A stretch of DNA of 64,000 nt, taken from positions 1-64,000 of the IMG/VR virus record IMGVR_UViG_3300017963_000242; one strand, given 5' to 3'. This document shows, piece after piece, positions 43,163 through 56,934 of this stretch. The position numbers and the translations under genes were made by a program. The number at the start of each line of letters is the position of its first letter. Within the stretch, counting starts at the first letter, position 1. Origin of the DNA: a virus. Below the pieces are notes generated by a model. It had not been told where the DNA came from. It saw nothing but the letters and a program-made list of their open reading frames with translations, and made no database searches.

Positions 43163-44200
43163 CTACGCACCCGTAAAATATACCACGCCTGAATTCCCGT
43201 TATAGTCACTTTTAATGCGTGGCGCGCCGATGGACATCACCTTGAAGTTCTGTGCCATTCCGTCCGGGCTGGTCCACTCGACTACCTGGTTGAGCTGGTA
43301 GACGCAGAAGTCCAGTACGTTCGGCGTCATCTGAACACCCACCAGCGTACCGGCGGTCATCCAGTCTGACGGATAAACGGCAGCGATTCCAGCCATCTTG
43401 AGAACGCGGGTTAGGCCGCTGTCGCCAGTGCCGTCCGCGAAGAAGTTGAGCGCCATTTCGTTGTACTGCGTCCGCGCTACCCAGAACTCGTAAGGGCCAA
43501 AGTAATTATCGCCCGCCAGCGCGATAATCATATTTCGGAAAGTCGGCGTGATATTCGCCAGCGTCCCAAAGTCGCCCGTGGCCGCGCCAGTATTGATATT
43601 CGGTTCGTTTGTGATACCGTACAATACATTCTGGTTCAGCGCGATATTCGTATTCCCGGCAAAGCCGATGCGCTCCATTTCCTCGGTCACGACGCGGCTC
43701 GCCTCGAATGCGTTAGTGGTGTCGATGCCGGAGCCATAGGCCCGGCTGGCCTCCAATTCGCGCATCCCGATTTGAAACTCTTTGTGGATGACCGGGATAG
43801 GCACGCCGGTCAGGTTATAGTCCTGCCGGTCGAAGTCCGGCGCAGCGCGCCCCGAAAGGCTGACCGTTGCCCGCGTCATCTCGGACCCCTGGTTGTACTG
43901 GCTGACCAGCACGCCCATCGAGTTGAGATTCTTGCGCAACTGCGGGTCGCCATTCAGGCGCGAGATAAGGTTCATTTGCCCGGTTGCCGCAACCTGTACT
44001 GCGTCGTCCAGCGATTCCCACTCGTCTTTGCGGAGTAGGGAGTTGGTGACTAGCCCGCGCCCGTTGGTGATCTGCACGAAACCTTGCTCGTTCGTTACCA
44101 ACTCTTGCGTGCCGTCAGGGTTCTGCCGCGCCATTGGCACGTATCCACCGATCTGCTGCAATTGGCTGATCGGGTTGATTGTTGCTTTTTCAATAGTCAT
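43163..44200 (-). CDS. Major capsid protein (encapsulin/linocin-like HK97 fold)
   Basis: LRKDEW..LD, PIPVIHKEF, YGITNEP, PRIKSD; start MTIEK with AGGAG RBS. Confidence 0.85.
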   Translation of the reverse strand: MTIEKATINPISQLQQIGGYVPMARQNPDGTQELVTNEQGFVQITNGRGLVTNSLLRKDEWESLDDAVQVAATGQMNLISRLNGDPQLRKNLNSMGVLVSQYNQGSEMTRATVSLSGRAAPDFDRQDYNLTGVPIPVIHKEFQIGMRELEASRAYGSGIDTTNAFEASRVVTEEMERIGFAGNTNIALNQNVLYGITNEPNINTGAATGDFGTLANITPTFRNMIIALAGDNYFGPYEFWVARTQYNEMALNFFADGTGDSGLTRVLKMAGIAAVYPSDWMTAGTLVGVQMTPNVLDFCVYQLNQVVEWTSPDGMAQNFKVMSIGAPRIKSDYNGNSGVVYFTGA

Positions 44201-44208
44201 TGTATCTC

Positions 44209-44670
44209 CTACACAATCCGCACGCGGAGTCTGGTGTCCGTTGCACACACCAAATCCTCGTGAGGCACACCGACGATGATCAGGTCCGCAGACCCGCTCG
44301 TGCTAACGCGCAGCGTTCCATCGCCGTTAGAAACCAAGCGCGAACGACCACGAACCGCCGTGCCAGTCGCCAGGTACATGTACAGCAAGTCGCCCGGTAG
44401 CGCATAGATGTAGCGCACGGTGTCCGCCGTCAGATACGGCGAGTCGATGGCCGCTGCGGCATTGTCGTCGTCGAACGGGTTTTCGATAGCAACCATTCGC
44501 TGATGAAAGCCAGTCCCGGTTGCATGCGCGACCAGATGCTCGTTTGCATCGTACTCAATGAGATAGCCGGGGATAATCGTCCCCGACCCGTAATCCTCTT
44601 GCACGCGGCCCTCAATATTGAACGGCACGGCGGTGCTGAGAACAATGGTATGATCCGTTGTGCTCGACAT
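44209..44670 (-). CDS. Capsid decoration (cement) protein
   Basis: Between protease and MCP; IIPGYL, LVSNGDGTL. Confidence 0.7.
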   Translation of the reverse strand: MSSTTDHTIVLSTAVPFNIEGRVQEDYGSGTIIPGYLIEYDANEHLVAHATGTGFHQRMVAIENPFDDDNAAAAIDSPYLTADTVRYIYALPGDLLYMYLATGTAVRGRSRLVSNGDGTLRVSTSGSADLIIVGVPHEDLVCATDTRLRVRIV

Positions 44671-44673
44671 ATC

Positions 44674-46128
44674 CTACTTCTCCTTGCCCGCCCGGTTGCC
44701 GCTCCACGCGACGATTGGCCGGGTATCCTGTTTTTGATTGGCGGTTGGCCCGCCTTCTTGTCCCGCATACGAGCGCGGCATCAGAGAACGCGCCAGTTTT
44801 TGCAGCGTAGGAACATCCTGCCGCTCTAGCTCGTCCTTGCTGAACGCGCATCGCTCGTTGGCCGCAAGTTCCGAGACCAACCTGGCCTTTTCGCTTGCCT
44901 GCGCCTCCTGGTGCGCTTTCACCACGTCCTTGGACGCTTCCAACTGACTCGACAAATCCGCAACCAGTTTTTCCAGCGTAGCCATGCGCTCTTCTTGCGC
45001 TGCGACTGCATCTGCACACGGTTGTTCGTTGCCTGTCGGCTCCTCTTCTTCCGGCTCATCGGCGGCCTTGGCGGCTTCCGTCTCCGGCGTTTGTTCCTCT
45101 TGTGGCATCGGCTCATCCTCTTTTTCTGGCTTGTCCTCTTCCGGTTCGTCTTCCTTGTCCGGTTTGCCAAACGCATTGAGAATTTTGCGCAGCACATCTG
45201 CGGATAGGGCTTCAAACCCCTCCGCGTTATCGTCTGCGTTCAGCTCAAGGCGAGTGCAGAGGTCTTTTACCAAATCGGCTTTACTTTTAGCCATTGTCTC
45301 TACATCCTCCGAGATGTCTGTTCCGTCGTCTATACCTAACGCACTCGCCAAGATGTGCAGTGCGCCTTTCACAATGTTTTTCTTTGGCGCGTCGTTTCCG
45401 ACTGCCTGTTTTCCCATATCCGTTTCCTCCGCCTGGTACACCAACTCGGTCGGCTGTGACCAGATCATTGTATCTGTGCAAGGCTCCCCCGCCTCATTCA
45501 CTCGCGGACACCCGCAACCGTCCTCCCACGAACACGCACCAACTGAGTCGAGAAGCGCGGCGAGATGGTCTGGTCGCAGGTTTCTAGCTACTCCATTGTA
45601 GGACTGGCCTTGCCATTCACCGCCGCGCTTCTCCAAGTCCCGAAAGTAGCCGGTCGAAACTTCTATCTTGTCTCCGTCCAGCACGCGCCGCATCAGTTCA
45701 GGCCCGCCTTTTAGCTTGCCCGCTCTGTCTACGTCGATCCACAATTCTGCTGGAACGGACTGGTCGCTCTCTCGATATTCAGTGCCAAACACGTACCCGG
45801 CGCGATGTTTTTCCATCATTGCCGGATCGTTGGCACTGACAGCCGTATCGCCCTCGTGTGGGTGATCAATGACGAACGGGCGACCATTCCACGCTGCTGG
45901 GAACTTTGCCAACTCTTCAGCTGGCACGAGTTCGCCGTTGAGTACACCTTCTCTAATCATCACGGTCGGGACAACTAGCCAGTCGCGGCCTTCCCAACTT
46001 GTGCGGTATGTTTTGTCTACTGTGTTTGCTTGCACCCTATTGGTCGATTGATTTGGTTTTTGTATTTTGACGTTGCCCTTGCGCCAAGAAAATCTAGCCG
46101 TTCTGTCTTTCATATCGACCCTTGTCAT
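44674..46128 (-). CDS. DUF2213-family prohead protease/scaffold
   Basis: EGVLNG, WNGRP..HP, EVSTG, PDHLAAL..GACS..DGCG; acidic coiled-coil C-terminus. Confidence 0.85.
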   Translation of the reverse strand: MTRVDMKDRTARFSWRKGNVKIQKPNQSTNRVQANTVDKTYRTSWEGRDWLVVPTVMIREGVLNGELVPAEELAKFPAAWNGRPFVIDHPHEGDTAVSANDPAMMEKHRAGYVFGTEYRESDQSVPAELWIDVDRAGKLKGGPELMRRVLDGDKIEVSTGYFRDLEKRGGEWQGQSYNGVARNLRPDHLAALLDSVGACSWEDGCGCPRVNEAGEPCTDTMIWSQPTELVYQAEETDMGKQAVGNDAPKKNIVKGALHILASALGIDDGTDISEDVETMAKSKADLVKDLCTRLELNADDNAEGFEALSADVLRKILNAFGKPDKEDEPEEDKPEKEDEPMPQEEQTPETEAAKAADEPEEEEPTGNEQPCADAVAAQEERMATLEKLVADLSSQLEASKDVVKAHQEAQASEKARLVSELAANERCAFSKDELERQDVPTLQKLARSLMPRSYAGQEGGPTANQKQDTRPIVAWSGNRAGKEK

Positions 46129-47102
46129 TCTTCTAACCCCATCACTATTTCTCTTGGGTCACTGTCGTACCCGGTATCACTCAATACCGTGAATGGTTTA
46201 CCTCTTGCAAGTAACAATTCAGTTTCAGACGGCCTGCTCTGTAATTTCCATCGGTCCATATACAACGCCTGAGCGCCCTTTGGTAATCGTATCTCAATCG
46301 TGGCCCCTGTTGAGCGCTGTTCCGCTACACCTTTATATAAAGCTGTTGACACAAAAGCATCATCTGTCCAAGTGCTACCAGTCAAGTCTTCATCATAGTC
46401 ATCCAACATCTCTACATCTATGCCCCGATAAACCGTAACCGGTTCAGGAAGACTCGACCTTTCTAGAGCCGCGTCAATTCGCTCCACGTCATCACTATAG
46501 GCTTCGCTATATCCAGCTTCTCGCAAATCATCATTGATGTCGTAGTATCCGTCACCTTTATACATTTCTAGAGATGCGGATTCTTCGTCTGATAGTTCTG
46601 GATTCAATCCGCTTTGAGCAGAAGCCCAATCATCTGCTTCTCTGCGAGAGCCAAAAGACCTTCCGCCCAAACTGCCTTTCCCGTGCGTGCCCGCTGGCGG
46701 GCCATGCCACCCCTTTCCCGGCCCTTTCTTTCCCGCGTTATCCTCTACGACCTCGACTTCCGCTTCCATCATCGCCCCACACTCTGAGCATTTAATCGAG
46801 CGACACGGAACACCGCGTTCCTTCTCTACCACGTGCCCGCAGTCTGGACACACACACCGCTCTGGCCCCCCTGGCGCTGGCTCAACGCCTGGACCGTAGG
46901 CGAACTCTGATGTATCGTCATTTTCTTTCAGCATAGCCCCATTTGCCTGCTTGAACGCCTGACCCTCACAGTCCTCTCCGCCGCTGTCATTGCAATCCTG
47001 GTATGTGTCCATCCACACAGCAACCCAAGTTGCTCGCTTGTCCTCCGGCAGTTCCTTGACGTGCTGCGGTAACGATTTGTCTCCCGGTCCACTGTATGGC
47101 AT
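46125..47102 (-). CDS. ChaB - Zn ribbon - ADP-ribosyltransferase fusion
   Basis: N-terminal MPY..SLPQHVKELP ChaB pattern; CVCPDCG/CSECG; VYRG, FVST, ETE (R-S-ExE ART). Confidence 0.8.
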   Translation of the reverse strand: MPYSGPGDKSLPQHVKELPEDKRATWVAVWMDTYQDCNDSGGEDCEGQAFKQANGAMLKENDDTSEFAYGPGVEPAPGGPERCVCPDCGHVVEKERGVPCRSIKCSECGAMMEAEVEVVEDNAGKKGPGKGWHGPPAGTHGKGSLGGRSFGSRREADDWASAQSGLNPELSDEESASLEMYKGDGYYDINDDLREAGYSEAYSDDVERIDAALERSSLPEPVTVYRGIDVEMLDDYDEDLTGSTWTDDAFVSTALYKGVAEQRSTGATIEIRLPKGAQALYMDRWKLQSRPSETELLLARGKPFTVLSDTGYDSDPREIVMGLEE

Positions 47103-47164
47103 CTTACCTCGCCAGTGTCCACGCTGCCAGCCACATCAAAGCAGTCAGCAGTCGCGCTTTCCAT

Positions 47165-47749
47165 TTAGTCATGCTGTGCGATCACCAGATGCCACTTTAT
47201 ATCCGATGTGCTCGTGTATGTCGGCGTGCCCTCGGTTTTTGCCTGGGTGTACAGGTCTGTAACACCCGCACCTAGCACAAACGGAAACGGTGGATTGCAG
47301 ACATAGGTTGCTACGGAGTTGTCTTTGAACGACACATATGTACCGGATCCAACAGAAATCACCCCCAGGCTGTTCAGCAAATCAGCATCAGATATATCAA
47401 GCTCTGCATCGTTAGCCGTCGGTGTAAACGTGCCTGAAAAAATCACCAGATCAAATGCGGCATTCTGTGCGCCTTTGTCCGTGATGACCACTTTGCGAAT
47501 CTCTCCGTGTCCGCCTTCGCCGTCTACCACGTCCTCGAATTTCATCAGGCCGCCAACAGCATCCCCAGCAGCATAAGCCGTTCCAGACGTAATAGTCGGT
47601 GTCACGTCTACTCGCGTCAGTTCAAGCTGCGACCGTGCTTCAATTCGGCCAGTCGTGTCTACGCGCAGCGGATACCGCGTTCCGCCTGCATTCTCTCCGA
47701 ATACAAGCTGAACTCCGCCGCCCTTGTCCTCAAAGTCGGTCGTTGCCAT
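47165..47749 (-). CDS. Hypothetical virion-associated protein
   Basis: GAGG RBS; beta-rich; first gene after internal late promoter. Confidence 0.55.
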   Translation of the reverse strand: MATTDFEDKGGGVQLVFGENAGGTRYPLRVDTTGRIEARSQLELTRVDVTPTITSGTAYAAGDAVGGLMKFEDVVDGEGGHGEIRKVVITDKGAQNAAFDLVIFSGTFTPTANDAELDISDADLLNSLGVISVGSGTYVSFKDNSVATYVCNPPFPFVLGAGVTDLYTQAKTEGTPTYTSTSDIKWHLVIAQHD

Positions 47750-47763
47750 AGTTCCACCTCGGA

Positions 47764-47818
47764 AACAAAAAAGGCCACTCCCATCCAGAACGTTCCCGTT
47801 CCGGGTAGAAGTGGCCTC
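47764..47818 (-). terminator. Intrinsic terminator in leader of internal late promoter
   Basis: AGGCCACTTCTACCCGGAAC..GTTCTGGATGGGAGTGGCCT followed by TTTTTGTTT. Confidence 0.75.
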
Positions 47819-47927
47819 CGAAAAATCGTATGCCTATATGAGGTTATGATTGCTCTTAGCTGGACTCCCTGGCGTTGACGCTTGGGTGGGAATCCCTGAT
47901 TGTTACGCGCCCATCCGCGCTAAGAAT

Positions 47928-47961
47928 ATTATAGCAGGTTTGCGGCACGATGTCAAGCTAT
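47928..47961 (-). promoter_or_regulatory. Leftward promoter L2
   Basis: TTGACA 47956-47951, 17 bp, TATAAT 47933-47928; shares a 19-bp element with 59635-59653. Confidence 0.85.
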
Positions 47962-47962
47962 T

Positions 47963-48151
47963 CTATAATTTGCCCTCGCACCGCTTGATATGCGCGACCT
48001 GCTTGGCAATCGTTTTGTCACTCGGTCCACGTCGCTTAATCCAGAGCAGCTTTTCCGATGTCGTTGGTGATAATCCAAGCTGTTGTTCATAGACGGCAAG
48101 CTGGGCTAACGTGACGCTGCGCAAGTTCATCAGGTATGTGCGGTCTTGCAT
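47963..48151 (-). CDS. Small hypothetical protein
   Basis: Start MQDRTY within track ORF. Confidence 0.45.
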   Translation of the reverse strand: MQDRTYLMNLRSVTLAQLAVYEQQLGLSPTTSEKLLWIKRRGPSDKTIAKQVAHIKRCEGKL

Positions 48152-48199
48152 AATAGACCCGCCTTCTGCTTTTATGTCGCTATCGCCCACGTCATCCTC

Positions 48200-48234
48200 C
48201 GTACAGCCGTACATTATCCCAAGTTATCCCAAGT
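48200..48234. repeat. 35-bp dispersed inverted repeat, copy B
   Basis: CGTACAGCCGTACATTATCCCAAGTTATCCCAAGT. Confidence 0.85.
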
Positions 48235-48563
48235 CAGCGAACTAGCCCTGCCAACAGCGGGTCGTCGACTGGCCGAGCATCGTCTTGCGCCGATGCCATT
48301 TCTCGCCTCAAGATGTCATCGCCATTCGGCGGTATCCGTTCCACATCCACGGCAAATGGAATGAACTCATTGATAGCGGTCTGCTCTCGCTCGAATACTA
48401 GAGTAGTCACATACTCTGACAATCTCATCGCAGCGGCATCGAGAACCGACCATCCAGTCACGAACCGCCAGCCCTCAGCGGCTGTCTGATTCAGACTCTC
48501 TTCCACTTGCCCCGATGTCAAATCGTGACGCAATACAACCGTTTTATACTGCTGCTCCATCAC
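48234..48563 (-). CDS. DUF4177-like small protein
   Basis: QYKTV...LNQTAAEGWRFV...LVFER. Confidence 0.5.
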   Translation of the reverse strand: MMEQQYKTVVLRHDLTSGQVEESLNQTAAEGWRFVTGWSVLDAAAMRLSEYVTTLVFEREQTAINEFIPFAVDVERIPPNGDDILRREMASAQDDARPVDDPLLAGLVR

Positions 48564-48784
48564 TCGCCTTTCTGCGATGCATATGCGTTTCTCATAAACT
48601 CTGCTTGCATCGCAATCGTCATCTGCATAGACTGTGAGTCAGTGAATCCTGCCTCACGACATACAGCATAATATTGAAAGTAGGTTTGTGCCATAGCCCG
48701 CAGTTCTTGAACGCCTTCGTCCTTGAGCAATTCATCCAAGTATTGCTGCCACGGGTTTTCCGGTTCAGGTTTGTGTCTAGCCAT
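48560..48784 (-). CDS. Hypothetical protein
   Basis: Coupled ORF. Confidence 0.5.
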   Translation of the reverse strand: MARHKPEPENPWQQYLDELLKDEGVQELRAMAQTYFQYYAVCREAGFTDSQSMQMTIAMQAEFMRNAYASQKGE

Positions 48785-48787
48785 TGA

Positions 48788-49117
48788 TTAGTCTTCCGTT
48801 CCGATTCTCAACCCAGTTCCCTCGTGAATCAGGTAGAGCTTGCCATCATTGCCGAACTCATAAAAGCATTCGATGTCCATAGTCTTGATGATCTCGTTCG
48901 CTTCAAGAACAAAATCGTGCCGTTCTGCTTGGTTACTCAAGTTTTTGATTGCGGGTCTCAACCCGGAAAGTAGTTCAATGGCTCGCCAGTTCAGCGCCTT
49001 CTTGCGTGCCCATTCTTTTCTGCAAATCGGGCACTTTGGAAACCCTTGCGGCCAATCTACATAATGTTCTGCTGCCACATACTGATGTCCATGTTCACAC
49101 CATATCAAGCCGGTCAT
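48788..49117 (-). CDS. Hypothetical protein with Zn-binding N-terminus
   Basis: CEHGH...CPIC. Confidence 0.5.
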   Translation of the reverse strand: MTGLIWCEHGHQYVAAEHYVDWPQGFPKCPICRKEWARKKALNWRAIELLSGLRPAIKNLSNQAERHDFVLEANEIIKTMDIECFYEFGNDGKLYLIHEGTGLRIGTED

Positions 49118-49120
49118 TGC

Positions 49121-49318
49121 CTACCTTTCTGTTTGGAATCTTTCAACGCGCCCCAATCCAACCTCGAACGATGTAAACTTTTCGTCGTGACGAAATGACT
49201 CAGCTATACCCAAATCTTCTTTGAGTATGTTTCCGTCTTTGACAAATCGAATATCCATATCTGAGACTGGAACGGTCAGATGCTTGTCTATCACGATGTA
49301 CGTATCTGGCGCAGTCAT
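49121..49318 (-). CDS. Hypothetical protein
   Basis: GAAAGG RBS. Confidence 0.45.
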   Translation of the reverse strand: MTAPDTYIVIDKHLTVPVSDMDIRFVKDGNILKEDLGIAESFRHDEKFTSFEVGLGRVERFQTER

Positions 49319-49339
49319 TGGTTCGCCTTTCCGTTTGAA

Positions 49340-49789
49340 TCATCTGCACTTGCGGAAAAGTGCTGTGATTTTTATACAATGTCTCCATAGCCAGTGAACT
49401 GGACGCGCCCAGCGATTCGGCCACTGTACGTCGTAGCCCGGTGCGTGTACATCAAAGCTAACTTGTACAGCGTCCTCTATTTCTTGCTGTGTCGTCTGAT
49501 TGATAGTTGCACGCTGCATAGTAATGGTCGGTTGAAACCATTGCCGCCCTGGCTTATAGGTTATCGTACTCGTCGGTCGATGCTCTCGCACAAGCATGTC
49601 CCATATAGTATCCCAACCTCCCGATACGTTTTCAACATCGAAGCTGTACTCGGTCTGCAATCCGGTTATATCTAGCTTGTTACTTGGAGGCTGTTCGCAC
49701 TCGTCTGCAATAAGACCGTAGCCCACTCGCTCATCATTTATGAATATCTGTGCTGTCCCCGCCTTGCTCATTCCTGCTACCATCGTCAA
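49340..49789 (-). CDS. Hypothetical protein
   Basis: GAAAGG RBS. Confidence 0.5.
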   Translation of the reverse strand: MTMVAGMSKAGTAQIFINDERVGYGLIADECEQPPSNKLDITGLQTEYSFDVENVSGGWDTIWDMLVREHRPTSTITYKPGRQWFQPTITMQRATINQTTQQEIEDAVQVSFDVHAPGYDVQWPNRWARPVHWLWRHCIKITALFRKCR

Positions 49790-49798
49790 GCCTTTCTG

Positions 49799-50149
49799 CT
49801 ATTCAATCGAAATCGACATTGAAAGCAATGGTTCCATGCTGCCCAGTCCCTTGAATGCTCGTATACGGTCAAGGCCCGGAATCGTCCACGCTTGCCTAAT
49901 GAGGACCATAAGTGCATCCTCTTGTGTGAACCCCTCACCTGATGGCATGACCACCGCTGCGTATGGGCTGTCCGTTACCCACGAGTCATGGCAGATCGCA
50001 CACCGCCACAGTGTCCTATTCACGCCTGATTCGCATTTGTACTCGATTGAGTACCCACACTCTCGCAGTAGTGCCTCAAGTTGTTCTTTTGGAGTCGGAT
50101 AAAGACTGGTTGGCATTCCCGATGCCGAAACGCTTATATCCATTGTCAA
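49799..50149 (-). CDS. Hypothetical protein
   Basis: GAAAGG RBS. Confidence 0.5.
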   Translation of the reverse strand: MTMDISVSASGMPTSLYPTPKEQLEALLRECGYSIEYKCESGVNRTLWRCAICHDSWVTDSPYAAVVMPSGEGFTQEDALMVLIRQAWTIPGLDRIRAFKGLGSMEPLLSMSISIE

Positions 50150-50155
50150 GCCTTT

Positions 50156-50809
50156 CTACTCTCCTAGCCACAAGTCGGCGCAGTTTAGCTTTCCACGTTG
50201 CTTATAATTCATAGACCAAAAATGTGGGCAGTTTGGATGGAATTTTCCAGGATTCGCCATTGCCACACGAATGGGGACGTTGCCTCGCGCAATCCAGCCT
50301 TGGCAGATAGGACACACGGCAGTTCTTGGTTCTAGCCTCGCTGTCCCCTCTTGTAGCCCGTTCATCTGAACAAAGTCCTGCTGTGCCTGAGTGCGCCCGT
50401 CGCCCTCTACCATCTGTGCGATCTGCACATCCTTCCACGCTGCCCGTTTCTCGTACCATCCCTCTAGCCGCTTTGCATACGTGTACCTGTTCGCCGTTGG
50501 TGTCTCTTGTCGGATGTGCGCGATTGCGATAGCCAGGTCATAGTTGTATGTGTTGACGATGGATTCCGCGTGCCACCGCGATTTTTCATTTAGCTTGGAT
50601 AGGATAGGCCCCTCTCGCACCCCGCCCACGCGATTGCACCCAGCCCGACGCGCCTGAATATTCAACTCATCATTGTACGCCGCACGCATATCCCGCAACA
50701 ACGACCCGCGTATGCTCTCGACATCGAATGCATCATATCGCGCCGCCAGGTGAACCAGCTTGCCCACGTCGCTCAAGTCGCCAACCGCTGCGCGCCAGTC
50801 TCTAGCCAT
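50156..50809 (-). CDS. MuF-like minor head morphogenesis protein
   Basis: CPIC...HPNC motif; near portal. Confidence 0.7.
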   Translation of the reverse strand: MARDWRAAVGDLSDVGKLVHLAARYDAFDVESIRGSLLRDMRAAYNDELNIQARRAGCNRVGGVREGPILSKLNEKSRWHAESIVNTYNYDLAIAIAHIRQETPTANRYTYAKRLEGWYEKRAAWKDVQIAQMVEGDGRTQAQQDFVQMNGLQEGTARLEPRTAVCPICQGWIARGNVPIRVAMANPGKFHPNCPHFWSMNYKQRGKLNCADLWLGE

Positions 50810-51008
50810 CGTCGTCCTCTACCATTGCTTCTATCAGTGTCGCCAATACATCCTCGGCAGGCGCTCCATCGTCAAGCGCATCCTCAATCGCTTTGCCAAA
50901 TCCAGGCCCAGCGTCCACCTCGTTCAACACGAACCAACGCGCCTTGTGCGCTTCTGTCATTGCGCCTAGTAGATAGGATATGCTGCGTCTTGCGTCCAGA
51001 GTTTTCAC
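50802..51008 (-). CDS. Small acidic protein (possible immunity/accessory)
   Basis: Coupled downstream of tagged effector gene. Confidence 0.45.
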   Translation of the reverse strand: MKTLDARRSISYLLGAMTEAHKARWFVLNEVDAGPGFGKAIEDALDDGAPAEDVLATLIEAMVEDDDG

Positions 51009-51493
51009 GCTGTCACCTCCAAGCTGCCCGACTTTGGCGTCATCCTTGCACCGAGCACGGTCTGAGCAAACGAGTCAGACCCGACCAGATAACCGCGCAA
51101 CTGCCCGCCGACCTTGAGCGGCATGTGCCATTGCTGGCTGCGCTCGACCGGCAAGACTGGATTTTGTCTCAGCGTCTTGATTGCGCTCCGCACAGCCTTG
51201 TACCCTGTGCGCTGGCCTGCTCGCTCCCAAACGTGACCTGGAATCTTACCAAGCGTCTTGCCGTGTGTTCCTTTCGGAGGGCCATGCCAGCCCTTACCTG
51301 GGCCTTTCGCTTGAACCGTCAGTTCATCTTGAGCAACCGTCTCTTGCCACTCGCTATCAGGAATGGCTTTCAGTCGCACCATTGCGTCACCGAACGAACG
51401 CAGCCCCATCTCCGCTACGTTTTTCTTGATGACCCTTCCCAATCGCTCGCGCTGCTTTTTATCCTGCTCAGTCCGCTGCTTACGTGTCGGCAT
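51005..51493 (-). CDS. Tagged head-module protein with RNase-toxin-like C-terminus
   Basis: KGPGKGWHGPPKGTHG then HVWERAGQR...QTVL. Confidence 0.55.
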   Translation of the reverse strand: MPTRKQRTEQDKKQRERLGRVIKKNVAEMGLRSFGDAMVRLKAIPDSEWQETVAQDELTVQAKGPGKGWHGPPKGTHGKTLGKIPGHVWERAGQRTGYKAVRSAIKTLRQNPVLPVERSQQWHMPLKVGGQLRGYLVGSDSFAQTVLGARMTPKSGSLEVTA

Positions 51494-51701
51494 TCTGGCT
51501 GCCTTCAGCTAGCTCAAATTGAATATCGCGATCTCCTTGAAACGAATCGCGATGATCGTTGTCGCCTTTCCATATTTCTATCGGAATACCCTCTGGAAAA
51601 GCTGCGCATTTTCTTTCCGAACCATCGGTCAAATGCTTACACGTTGAGCACGTCGGACTGTAGATAGGCGTTTCAAATTCCTTGTCAATAGTAAAGGTCA
51701 T
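51480..51701 (-). CDS. Small Cys/His protein of the type found after phage head toxins
   Basis: CSTCKH..CAAFPEGIP..H..GD.IQFE. Confidence 0.6.
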   Translation of the reverse strand: MTFTIDKEFETPIYSPTCSTCKHLTDGSERKCAAFPEGIPIEIWKGDNDHRDSFQGDRDIQFELAEGSQNADT

Positions 51702-53995
51702 TCAATCACCTCATACGTTAATCCTAGCCCCGGATGATTTTTTGTAAGACGCTCCCATACTTCATGATTATGCAGCATATTAGCCGCCGACGTTGTCGTC
51801 TTTTTATCAAAGATTCTCGCCATAAAGTGCCCTCGAACCTGATCGTCAACAATATCTACCTTGGGCTTTATGTCTTTCCAGGTAGGTGTTTTCTCAGACC
51901 TAGACATAATATATGTTTTTCCTGTGCTTCCAGCCGCACGAATCGACATTAGTTTTCCATCGGTCAATAGCCTAATATCCGACTCTGAAAAAGAACGCCC
52001 GGTTGGATGGTTATGAGTTAGCACCTTTCCAGACATCTGCGCCACTTCTTTGTCTGTAAACGAAACGGACGAAGCTCCGCCACTTTTTGCAAGCAACTCT
52101 TTTCCTGTTTCTGGATCAAACAGTCCAGCGTGCTCAGTTGGTGAACTTCGGATATATCCCTCTGCGCGCTGAATAGCTTCTTCTGCTATTGGCGACAGCC
52201 CGCCGCTGCCCCCTTTCCCTGCCCCATGTGTCCCTCCCTTGCTTGGCCCCCACCATCCCCGACCCGGCCCCTTGCCGGACTGCGCGACGATGTAACCCAC
52301 GCCCTCGACGGTTGGGTCATAGGTTTTTCGACAGTCCGGGTTAGCGCATCGCAGCAGTGGGCCGTGACCTTCATATCTCTCAGCTTTGACAAACCCGCAC
52401 AACGGACACGTGCTGTCCACGATAACCGGCTTGTGCGAACCGATGAACAGAGACGCGATATAATCCTCGTTGGCCCTTGCCCGCTCTGTTTCTTCGTCCG
52501 GCTCTTCCGACGGTGGCTCTACAATCTCCGGCTCTGTCGGCTGCTCCGGCTCATCCGCCCCCGGCTGTTCAACCGGCGCTTCTGGCATGGCAGGTGCTTC
52601 CGGTTCATCGTCCTCCATATCCTCTGGAATGTCCGGCGGGAAACCGACAACCGCGCGCTGCTCTTTTTTAGTGAACGGCGTTGCGCCTTCTGCATCGGCA
52701 AACTGTTTCATTGCCGTCGCCTTGCGCATCGAAATCGTCGCAGCCTGCTCTTCGTCCGGTGGTATCAGCGGCGGCCAGTGTCGGTTGCCTTCATCGTCGG
52801 CCTTGCCAATCTTATAGCCGTCTGCTGGCTCTGGCAGAACGCCGTACCAGATAAGCCGGTCGCTGAACGGTCTTAGAATGCGCGGCTCTACATAGGTGTT
52901 TTGTCGCCGAGCAATCACGCCCGACCATCGCCGTGTATCCTCTTGGCTGGACGCTAGTTCGCCCGCCGCAGAACCAAACAGTACGTGCATCGGAATTCTC
53001 GTGATAGCAGCGATGTGTTTCATAAACGCATTGAACAACCCAGTCGGGTCCCACACGTCCGATCCGCCCAACTCAGCTACGTCCATCCCCGGCGCAAACA
53101 GGAATCGCGCCAGGTCGTGAACGTATGCCTCTAACTGGTCTTTGAACCCGTCTACCACCTTCGCATCACCCAGGTCAAAGTCCCATCCCTCACGAGGCGA
53201 TAGCACCGCGCCCTTGCGCTGATTCAACCAAGCTGATTCTGCCGACCCGCCAAGCGTCTTGTAGAGCATATCTATCAACGTGTCGTATGGCCGCTTGAGC
53301 CAGGGCCGACCGTAGACTTCGCTATCCGTGCGAAACTCGGCTATGTGTAACATCCGGGTATAGTGGACGCGCTCGCGGCTATCTTCGCCTACCTGGACAT
53401 CGTAGTTCAGCGGATAACCACATCGCTTGGAGGATGGGTCATCGTCTACATCGCCTATCTTTGCCTGTCCTTCGTTCAGCGGTCGCAACCACAAAAGCCC
53501 TTCCGGTCCCTTGACGCTGCCCTTCTCAACCGGCTTAGACAAGTCGGCGTTACCCGCTAGGCCAAACATCAGCGCGCCATAGTTGCCTATCCCTGATGCT
53601 GCATCGGCTCGCCGCAGTACGTCCCAAATGTAATGACGCTCGACTAGCTCGTTCCACGCACTGACGAACTCGGTATCCTCTTCGTCGTTCTCTGTGACTG
53701 CTGGTGGCTGGCCCCATGAGTCATCAGCGCGAACATCGATGATCTGACCGGCCAAGCCGCCCCTCTCGTATAGCCATAGATAGGAGCCGAAATCCAGTTC
53801 CTCGCTGTAGCCCAAGACGGTTGAGAACCTGCGCGCTCCCTCGTGCGTGCTTGCCCCGCCCATCACCCTGGACCGCCTGGACGGGTCAAATGCCGATGCT
53901 TGCGGCATCAGTCGTTGGCGGTTGGCGGATAGCTGTACCATCCGCAAGAACCGCATCGCACCCGCCGCTTGTTCGTCTGTGAATCTCTCGCTCAT
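51698..53995 (-). CDS. Portal protein (DUF1073-type) with C-terminal Zn ribbon, tag and JAB/MPN-like domain
   Basis: VHYTR, YGRPWL, IPMHVLFG..GEL; extension CPLCG/CANPDC, GPGRGWWGP..GTHG, EH..THNHP..SFSESD. Confidence 0.85.
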   Translation of the reverse strand: MSERFTDEQAAGAMRFLRMVQLSANRQRLMPQASAFDPSRRSRVMGGASTHEGARRFSTVLGYSEELDFGSYLWLYERGGLAGQIIDVRADDSWGQPPAVTENDEEDTEFVSAWNELVERHYIWDVLRRADAASGIGNYGALMFGLAGNADLSKPVEKGSVKGPEGLLWLRPLNEGQAKIGDVDDDPSSKRCGYPLNYDVQVGEDSRERVHYTRMLHIAEFRTDSEVYGRPWLKRPYDTLIDMLYKTLGGSAESAWLNQRKGAVLSPREGWDFDLGDAKVVDGFKDQLEAYVHDLARFLFAPGMDVAELGGSDVWDPTGLFNAFMKHIAAITRIPMHVLFGSAAGELASSQEDTRRWSGVIARRQNTYVEPRILRPFSDRLIWYGVLPEPADGYKIGKADDEGNRHWPPLIPPDEEQAATISMRKATAMKQFADAEGATPFTKKEQRAVVGFPPDIPEDMEDDEPEAPAMPEAPVEQPGADEPEQPTEPEIVEPPSEEPDEETERARANEDYIASLFIGSHKPVIVDSTCPLCGFVKAERYEGHGPLLRCANPDCRKTYDPTVEGVGYIVAQSGKGPGRGWWGPSKGGTHGAGKGGSGGLSPIAEEAIQRAEGYIRSSPTEHAGLFDPETGKELLAKSGGASSVSFTDKEVAQMSGKVLTHNHPTGRSFSESDIRLLTDGKLMSIRAAGSTGKTYIMSRSEKTPTWKDIKPKVDIVDDQVRGHFMARIFDKKTTTSAANMLHNHEVWERLTKNHPGLGLTYEVIE

Positions 53996-55218: not shown

Positions 55219-55606
55219 GCGCCGACCAGTTTGTCACACTCACATACGGAATCGGTTGTGTCCACGTGGCCCAATATTCCGGCACGTCTACAGCAATCGG
55301 CTGCCCACCTCGAAACGTCCGGCTTGTCAAATCGCCAGCATCTAACGCCCTGGCCTGAAACGAAGGCCAGCCTACCGGAGAGACTGTCACCCAGTCGCCA
55401 CACACAACCAGCCCGCTCTCAAACGCCTCTTTCGGAAACGCTACCCAAGGGCCAATTGAGCGGTCATAGACAAGCCCGCTGCCCTGGTCGCAGTACAGCG
55501 GATTGCCAATGTGTTCCGCCTCTGTATACTGCGTCGCTACACCTGTGTATGTGTATGCGTGTGCTGCTATGAGCGATAGCATTAGGATGTGCATTAGACG
55601 ACCCAT
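55181..55606 (-). CDS. Secreted RlpA-like double-psi beta-barrel protein
   Basis: Signal peptide; GVATQY, WVA, CGDWV, ALDAG, AVDV. Confidence 0.55.
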   Translation of the reverse strand: MGRLMHILMLSLIAAHAYTYTGVATQYTEAEHIGNPLYCDQGSGLVYDRSIGPWVAFPKEAFESGLVVCGDWVTVSPVGWPSFQARALDAGDLTSRTFRGGQPIAVDVPEYWATWTQPIPYVSVTNWSALERECRERGWCD

Positions 55607-56934
55607 CCTGGTTGCGCCTTGCGCCTCGCCTTACGTGAGAGACGGTCAACGTAGGCGCAGATATAGCGAGTGTAGTCTACAGAATGATCATTTTCTTTCA
55701 CTGGAACGTCCTTCGCTTTCTTGTCTGCCCACACATAGCCCGGAATCTCTTCTTCCAGACACGTCGGCGCGTGCGATTCCGACAAAGTGTCGTCCTTGTA
55801 TCTCAGGCAGTCTCGAACAATGAATAGCCGGTCCTCTGCAAATCGCTGCTGAACATTCGTAATGCCCGGTAGTACATCCGTAAAAGCCGCTACCGCAGGC
55901 AACCCAGCGCGCCTAAACTTGGCTATGTACGCCGGTTGTTCTGCGCCACATTGCAACGTCTCGAACTTGAATTCTTTGTACAATTCCTTAGCTCGCTCAA
56001 GCCACCAGTCATCCGTCTCACCTGTACGATAGAGTTGAGCGACTAGGTACATTCGCCCTTCCCAATCGACGGCAAAGACACCCATCGCGCCCGGATTTCG
56101 ATAGCCCCAGTCAATCCCAGCCACATAGCGGTGAATGGCCTGCGGAACATCCACCTGATAAATGAGATGGCGCGACTCGGTATACTGCTCATAGACAACG
56201 CCTTCGGACTGTACCCACCGACCGAAACGTAGACGCTCTTTACGCGCACCCGTCAAACTGTCCAGCTTGGCAATATAGTCTAGCCCGAACTCTGTCCAGC
56301 CGTTCTCATTGTCATATAATAGTGGATTCTCTTCGTGCCGACTATTGAGCAAGGTCATCGCCGGGCCGCTCGACCGTCGCTTGATCCAGTGCTGTGGTGG
56401 CCCTGGGTTACAGTCGCCCAACAGTTGACGATAAGGCATTGCCGTGCCACGCAGTCGAGTAATCAATATCTCGACATCGCCCTCGCTAAACTCTTCAGTT
56501 TGTAGGCACAGCACTAAATCAAATTCGCTCGATAGAATTCGACCGGGCTTATCAATCCCGCCTGTATTGATCTGGCTTCCGTTATCGTAAAGGTAGACTT
56601 GGCGATTTGGCCTCTTGGGACCATTGAGCACCATCGGGTGGTCTAGGCCGAGCACGAACTTTTCAAATGTTTGTAGGCCCGTCTCGCTCAGGCTTGTGCG
56701 CGTCTTGCGTACAATGAGCGCACGAGTACCAGGATATGTTAAGCAGCAGTAGTTTAGCTTCTCAAGGCCAGCGCGTGTTTTGCCTGTCCCGGCAGGTCCA
56801 GAGATGAGAATGGCCGCCGCCGCGCTTGCCAGTAGTTCAACTTGCGTCCCGCGAGGCGCGTACTTGTTCCTCGGATTGATCCCCTTCGGGATGTCTTTCT
56901 CTAATCTCTGCCAATACTCGGTGATAGAATGCAT
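55594..56934 (-). CDS. terL: Terminase large subunit (PBSX-like)
   Basis: GPAGTGKT, DCNP, GIDWG, NDHSVDYTRY. Confidence 0.92.
   Translation of the reverse strand: MHSITEYWQRLEKDIPKGINPRNKYAPRGTQVELLASAAAAILISGPAGTGKTRAGLEKLNYCCLTYPGTRALIVRKTRTSLSETGLQTFEKFVLGLDHPMVLNGPKRPNRQVYLYDNGSQINTGGIDKPGRILSSEFDLVLCLQTEEFSEGDVEILITRLRGTAMPYRQLLGDCNPGPPQHWIKRRSSGPAMTLLNSRHEENPLLYDNENGWTEFGLDYIAKLDSLTGARKERLRFGRWVQSEGVVYEQYTESRHLIYQVDVPQAIHRYVAGIDWGYRNPGAMGVFAVDWEGRMYLVAQLYRTGETDDWWLERAKELYKEFKFETLQCGAEQPAYIAKFRRAGLPAVAAFTDVLPGITNVQQRFAEDRLFIVRDCLRYKDDTLSESHAPTCLEEEIPGYVWADKKAKDVPVKENDHSVDYTRYICAYVDRLSRKARRKAQPGWVV

Follow-up and report, generated by a model that had tools for sequence, protein, structure and literature searches.

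We describe a short 16-residue glycine-tryptophan peptide, hereafter the tag, that heads three unrelated cargo domains in the head module of a virus and recurs in front of many other domains elsewhere. The sequence analysed, here called the window, is a 64-kilobase (kb) stretch of the 79.8-kb IMG/VR virus record IMGVR_UViG_3300017963_000242 (CheckV completeness 94%). Three of its proteins consist of a carrier, the tag and a cargo, which is an ADP-ribosyltransferase (ART), a RelE-like domain or a RadC-like JAB domain. Probably it serves as a label, hitherto undescribed, of capsid-borne enzymes.

A six-frame regular-expression (regex) scan of the window for the pattern KGPG[KR]GW[HW]GP[PS]xG(G)THG returned exactly three copies, and a profile search of the whole record found the same number (39-51 bits) and no additional copy. 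All three are located between the terminase and capsid genes, and the structural genes of the window lie on the minus strand. A sequence-only reading of this stretch had named these peptides, and they are present where it placed them when the minus strand is read; the plus strand at the same sites gives unrelated peptides. The copies differ at most third codon positions (mean column identity 69% over 99 nucleotides (nt)), so conservation is at the protein level, as that reading had proposed, and it is the peptide, not the DNA, that is under selection. In the same comparison, a DNA-level repeat or recombination signal at the tags was rejected. The tagged proteins, with lengths in amino acids (aa), and their parts are as follows.

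51698-53995, minus strand: portal protein, 765 aa, with a Phage_portal_3 domain (PF06381, E 1e-33, residues 73-429; phrog_146, E 3e-59), an acidic Pro/Glu linker, a zinc ribbon, the tag and a JAB-like cargo
52331-52408, minus strand: two-CxxC zinc ribbon in the portal C-terminus, C530-C555 (sequence)
52223-52273, minus strand: tag copy 3, KGPGRGWWGPSKGGTHG, portal residues 575-591 (translation, regex scan, profile 38.9 bits)
51704-52192, minus strand: RadC-like JAB/MPN cargo domain, portal residues ~602-764 (AlphaFold2 model with predicted local distance difference test (pLDDT) 83; Foldseek)
51005-51493, minus strand: 162-aa protein with a 60-residue helical leader, the tag and a RelE/ParE-like cargo (translation, homologues, AlphaFold2 model)
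51260-51307, minus strand: tag copy 2, KGPGKGWHGPPKGTHG, residues 63-78 of the 162-aa protein (translation, regex scan, profile 50.9 bits)
51026-51259, minus strand: small alpha/beta RelE/ParE-like cargo domain, residues 79-156 (AlphaFold2 model, VIA-align)
46125-47102, minus strand: 325-aa protein with a ChaB-like N-terminus (by eye only), a zinc ribbon, the tag and an ART (translation, Pfam, PHROG)
46779-46856, minus strand: two-CxxC zinc ribbon C83-C108, upstream of tag copy 1 (sequence; weak Zn-ribbon Pfam matches)
46680-46727, minus strand: tag copy 1, KGPGKGWHGPPAGTHG, residues 126-141 of the 325-aa protein (translation, regex scan, profile 47.1 bits)
46182-46631, minus strand: ADPrib_exo_Tox (R-S-ExE) ART cargo, residues 158-307 (PF03496, E 7e-25)

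In AlphaFold2 models of the JAB-like portal cargo and of the 162-aa protein, the tag region has a pLDDT <50 and adjoins well-folded cargo; in the 162-aa protein the low-scoring stretch covers residues 29-78, tag included. The possibility that the tag is a piece of the cargo fold was rejected, since the cargos have unrelated folds and the models show a disordered tag. Copies 1 and 3 are preceded by the two-CxxC zinc ribbons, which the sequence-only reading had overlooked; the two ribbons show no significant similarity and are taken as no more than suggestive.

The R-S-ExE ART named by that reading is firm: its Pfam match scores 87.9 bits against a gathering cut-off of 23.4, and YRG, STA and ETE motifs are present in the sequence. 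The ChaB-like N-terminus of the same protein, a 21-residue match at E 0.014, is suggestive only. A word-index search with the tag region of the ART protein returned that protein as the sole match.

The JAB-like domain fused to the portal is likewise borne out. Foldseek assigns the JAB/MPN fold to the 165-residue C-domain (RadC 2qlc and JAMM1 5ld9; probability 0.99-1.0, E 4e-3), and its top rows are all RadC, JAMM1, AMSH, Rpn11 or BubCD, with target-normalised template modelling scores of 0.43-0.49. A HNHPxGxSFSxxD signature (HNHPTGRSFSESD) is invariant in five homologues, its spacing one residue shorter than that of the JAB motif E...HxHx(7)SxxD, and the upstream Glu of the metal motif is present in four of the five. 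The portal protein has no JAB match in Pfam; one family member matches Prok-JAB at E 1e-3. The portal of a close relative (locus L127) keeps the ribbon and ends a few residues later, just short of the tag position, with neither tag nor cargo, which indicates that the ribbon belongs to the carrier and not to the cargo module.

Homologues of the JAB cargo occur in two isolated phages, cyanophage vB_AphaS-CL131 and Dorea phage DO134P1, where the domain is a head protein; both homologues lack the tag and both are annotated as hypothetical proteins. CL131 ORF_044 (L186:3848-4528 (+)) is a stand-alone RadC-like JAB protein among structural genes, beside a DUF2213 protein and the capsid gene. [quoted passage not shown] DO134P1_00013 (L187:2984-4492 (+)) is a MuF protein (PF04233, E 2e-14) with a C-terminal RadC-like JAB domain, encoded after the terminase genes and a 447-aa unannotated gene.

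The third cargo, of ~80 residues, had been called RNase-like. A RelE/ParE/YoeB-like fold (Z 5.0-5.5) is weakly suggested for it: the top 22 VIA-align rows are nearly all RelE, ParE, YoeB, HigB or YafQ toxins, at scores that lie below the chance-excluding level (Z 4.5-5.5, root-mean-square deviation 2.6-3.9 Å, 63-72 residues aligned; model pLDDT ~80-87). Eleven homologues of the 162-aa protein all retain the tag and the C-terminal domain, in which H87, E90, R91, R95 and K99 are invariant, and their N-termini are variable or almost absent.

The tag in other genomes

A 32-column profile built from 24 tag copies (alignment A2) was run against 1.84 billion representative proteins and matched 127 protein clusters at E <= 0.001. 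Across these clusters the G, W, P and H positions are near-invariant and the flanks are unrelated; the consensus is [K/E]-[K/E/A]-[K/G]-GPG[R/S/K]GW[W/F/H/Y][G/A]PP[K/R]GTH[G/T/V]. Position -1 or -2 is K or E in 112 of the 127. The tag is frequently preceded by a stretch of alternating hydrophobic and polar residues (hydrophobic-x-hydrophobic), and frequently an xGSQGG-type linker comes next. In 75 of the 127 proteins (59%) the first tag begins in the N-terminal 35 residues, preceded by recurrent 8-residue leaders (MRAILKSK, for example). Two or three profile matches occur in eight representatives, seven of which have two tags by a strict pattern. Similarity between tags is higher inside a genome or protein than across genomes (0.76 versus 0.63, permutation p ~0.005), which fits a phage-specific reader and also fits duplication. 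No model in Pfam, NCBIfam or PHROG spans the tag.

Searches of DNA with degenerate patterns gave true tags at two of 14 IMG/VR loci with a first pattern and at both of two with a second (four IMG/VR contigs), and on at least ~15 metagenome contigs among the 120 loci listed; matches in GC-rich DNA were mostly due to chance and were set aside. Among the 185,579 species genomes of GTDB, true tags were found at two of 46 loci, both in metagenome-assembled genomes (MAGs) of Proteobacteria. The tag thus seems almost confined to uncultured, apparently non-integrated phages. The two GTDB genes (L179:4370-7999 (+), Burkholderiales MAG; L156:2133-7280 (+), Steroidobacter MAG) both encode giant polyvalent-type proteins.

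What lies behind the tag is highly variable. BLAST clustering sorts the post-tag segments into ~60 families; their median length is 190 residues, the size of one domain. The proposal that the motif is linked to variable domains in other genomes thus passed its test, with ~60 unrelated families in the 127 clusters. Pfam matches among 124 tagged representatives include ADPrib_exo_Tox (9), PI3_PI4-kinase-like (8), ART (5), DUF3626 (4), DRAT (3), portal (3) and PARP (2), together with 2H phosphoesterases, GNAT, ParB_N, Prok-JAB, HipA-like kinase and ATLF-like domains; some two thirds of the representatives lack any Pfam domain.

The modules are shuffled at the tag. ART cargo is found behind portals (P0016, P0135) and behind short leaders of 8-35 residues (P0048 and others), and the same is true of JAB cargo (portals in P0003 and P0118, short leaders in P0022 and P0033). 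The 60-residue helical leader family of the 162-aa protein occurs in 7 clusters with at least five different cargos. The head modules of tag phages contain at least three portal families (PF06381/phrog_146, phrog_10963 and phrog_113): L006 encodes a fusion of portal, acidic linker, tag and ART, then a second tagged gene; a phrog_10963 portal has its tag at residue 529 (L135); and L007 has a tagged gene 1.8 kb downstream of a phrog_113 portal. In L127 the open reading frame after the untagged portal encodes leader, tag, GNAT domain, tag and RelE-like domain, and its counterpart in the window encodes leader, tag and RelE-like domain. A portal without tag next to a gene with two tagged domains argues that tag and cargo are inserted together as a unit and that each domain boundary has its own tag. 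To judge from these sequences, tag and cargo move as one unit between carriers and phages, and the modular-tag part of the sequence-only interpretation is strongly supported.

Some tagged proteins are much larger. The 1210-aa protein of L179 has an InPase domain at residues 17-150, the tag directly after it at 166 and an LPD1 domain at 1069-1142, and in the proteins of 1.7-1.9 thousand residues encoded by L136 and L156 the tag is N-terminal and a SNF2/DEAD helicase C-terminal. In L136 the tagged helicase protein has 1904 aa, and the gene upstream of it (L136:6629-8413 (-)) matches primase family phrog_19458, so this tagged protein may not lie in a head module.

A second class of tag, [E/K]GGPGSGHHGH[A/S]GRPGxxGGS, has the GGPGSG start in common with the tag described so far (the W-tag) and is absent from the window. 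Its sites are L033:1877-1921 (-), L119:2821-2865 (-), L057:741-770 (+) and residues 71-95 of protein P0093. The two classes occur together in the same phages and, in P0093, in the same protein. In L033 the second-class tag stands ahead of a RelE-like domain homologous to that of the window, so the two classes look interchangeable.

Genes around the tagged proteins

The head module runs from the terminase large subunit through a 103-aa gene, the portal, a 73-aa gene, the 162-aa gene, a 68-aa gene, ~10 small genes without matches, the 325-aa ART gene and a DUF2213 gene to the major capsid protein. The features of this block outside the tagged proteins are listed below.

55594-56934, minus strand: terminase large subunit, start of the head module (phrog_2, E 4e-27; PF04466, PF03237)
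51480-51701, minus strand: 73-aa Cys-rich gene, overlapping the portal stop (ATGA); phrog_33375, E 1e-5
50802-51008, minus strand: recurrent, syntenic 68-aa acidic gene that overlaps the 162-aa gene's stop (GTGA)
44674-46128, minus strand: DUF2213 head-maturation-protease-like domain (PF09979, E 6e-7; phrog_530, 12864 and 3778, 'head maturation protease') with an acidic coiled-coil, scaffold-like tail
43163-44248, minus strand: major capsid protein, HK97-like, DUF6260 (PF19774, E 1e-28; phrog_771, phrog_264)

The small genes that the sequence-only reading saw coupled to two of the tagged genes exist and overlap their neighbours by 4-14 nt, but this coupling is not special to them, since adjacent genes overlap likewise across the whole head-module block. 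The homologue of the 73-aa gene in L033 comes after a different, unrelated tagged cargo. In L127 (70% identity) and L119 a homologue of the 68-aa gene immediately follows the RelE-like gene; L007 and L033 have one close by. A role for the two genes as cargo-specific immunity genes was rejected: the first follows another cargo in L033, and both recur syntenically. From their sequences and synteny they look like conserved backbone genes rather than cargo-specific partners. It is possible that the 68-aa acidic protein is an antitoxin-like neutraliser of the RelE-like domain, because its gene directly follows the RelE-like gene in three of five loci.

Proteins of the 68-aa type have the motif S-x3-L-x2-M-T-x3-K-x-R-W/F in the window (50802-51008 (-)), L127, L119:620-781 (-), L007:8421-9332 (+) and L033:671-931 (-); in L007 the protein is fused to a ChaB-like domain. 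The ~10 small co-oriented genes between the 68-aa and ART genes (window 47165-50809 (-)) have no PHROG or Pfam match, except for a weak DUF4177 match at 48234-48563. One of them, a 217-aa gene (50156-50809), shares 79% identity with its L127 counterpart.

Role of the tag

With somewhat better than even probability, the tag is a head-cargo label read during assembly. It would be a short disordered linear motif heading the cargo modules of the phage head, with a carrier on one side (a portal C-terminus, the 60-residue helical leader, a ChaB/zinc-ribbon piece, another cargo module or some 8-20 residues) and on the other a cargo that would be a single enzyme domain, in the window the ART, the RelE-like or the RadC-like JAB domain. 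A component of the assembling procapsid would read the tag, and the module would be loaded, cut from its carrier by the maturation protease, or both. The freed enzyme would exit along with the DNA to act at an early stage of infection on the host, as T4 Alt and internal proteins or MuF-fused effectors do. The DUF2213 protease-like, scaffold-like protein is a candidate reader; we also count for this reading the overlap of the ART gene's stop with the DUF2213 gene's start. Packaging in the capsid is supported indirectly by the portal fusion, by the MuF-fused homologue and by the one homologue, without tag, detected by virion proteomics.

Loading and processing draw on different observations. Tags at every internal polyprotein boundary and flexible glycine-rich flanks favour processing, as do the tags kept on portal fusions, where an address is redundant and release is needed. 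The many first tags close to the N-terminus behind recurrent leaders favour an address. A T4-like combination, loading followed by a cut, would cover both roles; a cut specifically at or near the tag has a lower probability than a head-cargo label in general.

Several results weigh against a head-cargo label. We found no tag in 50,697 isolate phage records by tblastn with the 162-aa protein, the tag peptide and a two-tag protein, a search in which the low-complexity filter may hide the tag. The homologues in CL131 and DO134P1, both without the W-tag, are no demonstration that the tag loads JAB cargo. The six-frame regex scan detected no tag in the capsid, scaffold and protease proteins of the window, so the tag is not a general protease site. 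Nor does a simple protease-site model fit the residues upstream: V-x(0-2)-N/Q, which the sequence-only reading saw before each tag, is true of the window copies but does not describe a general or conserved site, being found at only 21 of 127 tags elsewhere. First tags within 35 residues of the N-terminus leave little to cut off, and a loading address is redundant on a portal fusion. A common reader was sought: DUF2213, Phage_portal_3 and the protease and capsid of the window were not found in other tag-bearing virus records. In tag phages G002 (100% complete) and G004, homologues of the window's DUF2213 protein, capsid protein and portal family could not be detected, so this search brought no common reader to light. 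No single role accounts for every tag architecture.

One rival reading takes the tag as purely a loading address: never cut, it would dock cargo to the inner capsid, scaffold or portal and stay on the mature protein, by analogy with an encapsulin cargo-loading peptide. The prevalence of N-terminal tags behind recurrent leaders would suit such an address, as would a motif far longer and better conserved than typical prohead-protease sites and disordered beside folded cargo in the models. However, portal fusions and two-tag polyproteins need no address at each internal boundary, and a portal-tethered enzyme would be unable to exit the capsid without a cut, which makes a pure address unlikely, if readily conceivable. 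That no head protein is common to tag-bearing phages, and that Trp, Pro and His abound in the tag, as they do in many peptide ligands, might instead point to a motif with no part in head assembly, which would act after injection by binding or localising to a common target or chaperone in the host cell. This we regard as improbable: it leaves unexplained why the tag lies exactly at carrier-cargo junctions of portals and polyproteins and why tags are more alike within than between phages, and the hosts are presumably diverse (freshwater, soil and marine metagenomes; two Proteobacteria MAGs) whereas the tag is near-invariant.

It is quite improbable that the tag does no more than link its neighbours passively or form a mobile cassette's conserved edge, functionless and kept by common descent. 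Tag and cargo do behave as an insertion unit with glycine-rich surroundings, but the G, W, P and H positions stay near-invariant over 127 clusters with unrelated flanks, the peptide is conserved despite synonymous divergence, and there is no DNA-level repeat to drive recombination. We give very little credence to a DNA-binding hook by which the cargo would be tethered to the genome and carried along with it. The tag is basic and Gly/Pro-rich, and the GRPG core of the second class may resemble AT-hooks; the W-class, however, has no RGRP core, and the junction position would again go unexplained.

A head-cargo label read during assembly might extend beyond this phage. We hold tentatively, at rather less than even probability, that the W-tag and the co-occurring GGPGSGHHGHxGRPG tag form a transferable capsid-cargo signal of many uncultured lineages with different portal, protease and capsid families, such that any domain placed behind the tag would enter the head as cargo and be set free for injection. 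Head-carried, injected proteins are known for a handful of model phages and are elsewhere guessed from portal or MuF fusions. If the reading is true, the tag would allow candidate injected effectors, most of them of unknown fold, to be listed from the sequences of metagenomes and viromes alone: the two thirds of tagged representatives without a Pfam domain would be a pool of unknown host-takeover or anti-defence enzymes. The tag would also define a concrete, mutable element for cargo loading and release, and could serve to load chosen proteins into capsids.

Comparison with known systems

Head-packaged effectors are already known; the conserved header peptide appears to be undescribed, and our literature search found no description of a shared header or junction peptide. 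The closest parallel is with polyvalent and portal-fused effectors: PMC5512222 (Iyer et al. 2017) and PMC9503650 (Iyer et al. 2022) describe conflict domains (ART, 2H, BECR-type RNases, InPase, ParB, JAB) that are fused to portal or MuF proteins or encoded in terminase-portal modules and predicted to be packaged and injected, and the passages of the two papers retrieved by text search mention no shared junction peptide. The window likewise has a PF06381 portal and a JAB-fold domain in one open reading frame, and its ART and RelE-like genes likewise belong to the head module, with the terminase gene on one side and the capsid gene on the other. The tagged protein of L179 bears the InPase and LPD1 domains of polyvalent proteins; a Pfam scan of the window's tagged proteins found no LPD, InPase or MPTase domain. 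Polyvalent proteins are giant, whereas the modules of the window are mostly single-cargo genes. For the former, processing by an in-built zincin-like MPTase domain has been proposed (PMC5512222); this domain has no Pfam match among the tagged proteins analysed here.

In the Dar system of phage P1, DarB and DdrB are reported to be packaged and processed (PMC9024508, PMC12810830). Giant helicase-containing antirestriction proteins enter the heads there, and loading depends on the partner proteins Hdf and DarA. The large polyvalent tagged proteins of L136, L156 and L179 are alike, two of them having a C-terminal SNF2/DEAD helicase. We know of no shared peptide tag among P1 Dar proteins.

MuF polymorphic toxins, head proteins of the SPP1 gp7 type, reportedly have variable C-terminal toxin domains, as Jamet et al. 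are said to have described in 2017. They resemble the proteins of the window in having a swappable C-terminal effector next to the portal gene and a constant head-associated part, and a homologue of the window's JAB domain is fused to MuF in Dorea phage DO134P1. However, PF04233 is absent at E <= 0.1 from the three tagged proteins of the window, in a scan that detects the Dorea control at E 2e-14. The window proteins are therefore not MuF toxins, and the constant element here is a disordered peptide of 16-20 residues instead of a folded domain.

The capsid targeting sequence of T4 is carried by the internal proteins IPI-III and Alt and is removed by the prohead protease gp21; together with the P1 Dar proteins it is a precedent established by experiment. 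There, too, a short N-terminal peptide marks unrelated proteins, an ART among them, for uptake into the prohead, and the 75 tags near the N-terminus are placed similarly. Unrelated to the T4 peptide in sequence, the W-tag also occurs internally, is much more conserved and extends over several head-protein lineages.

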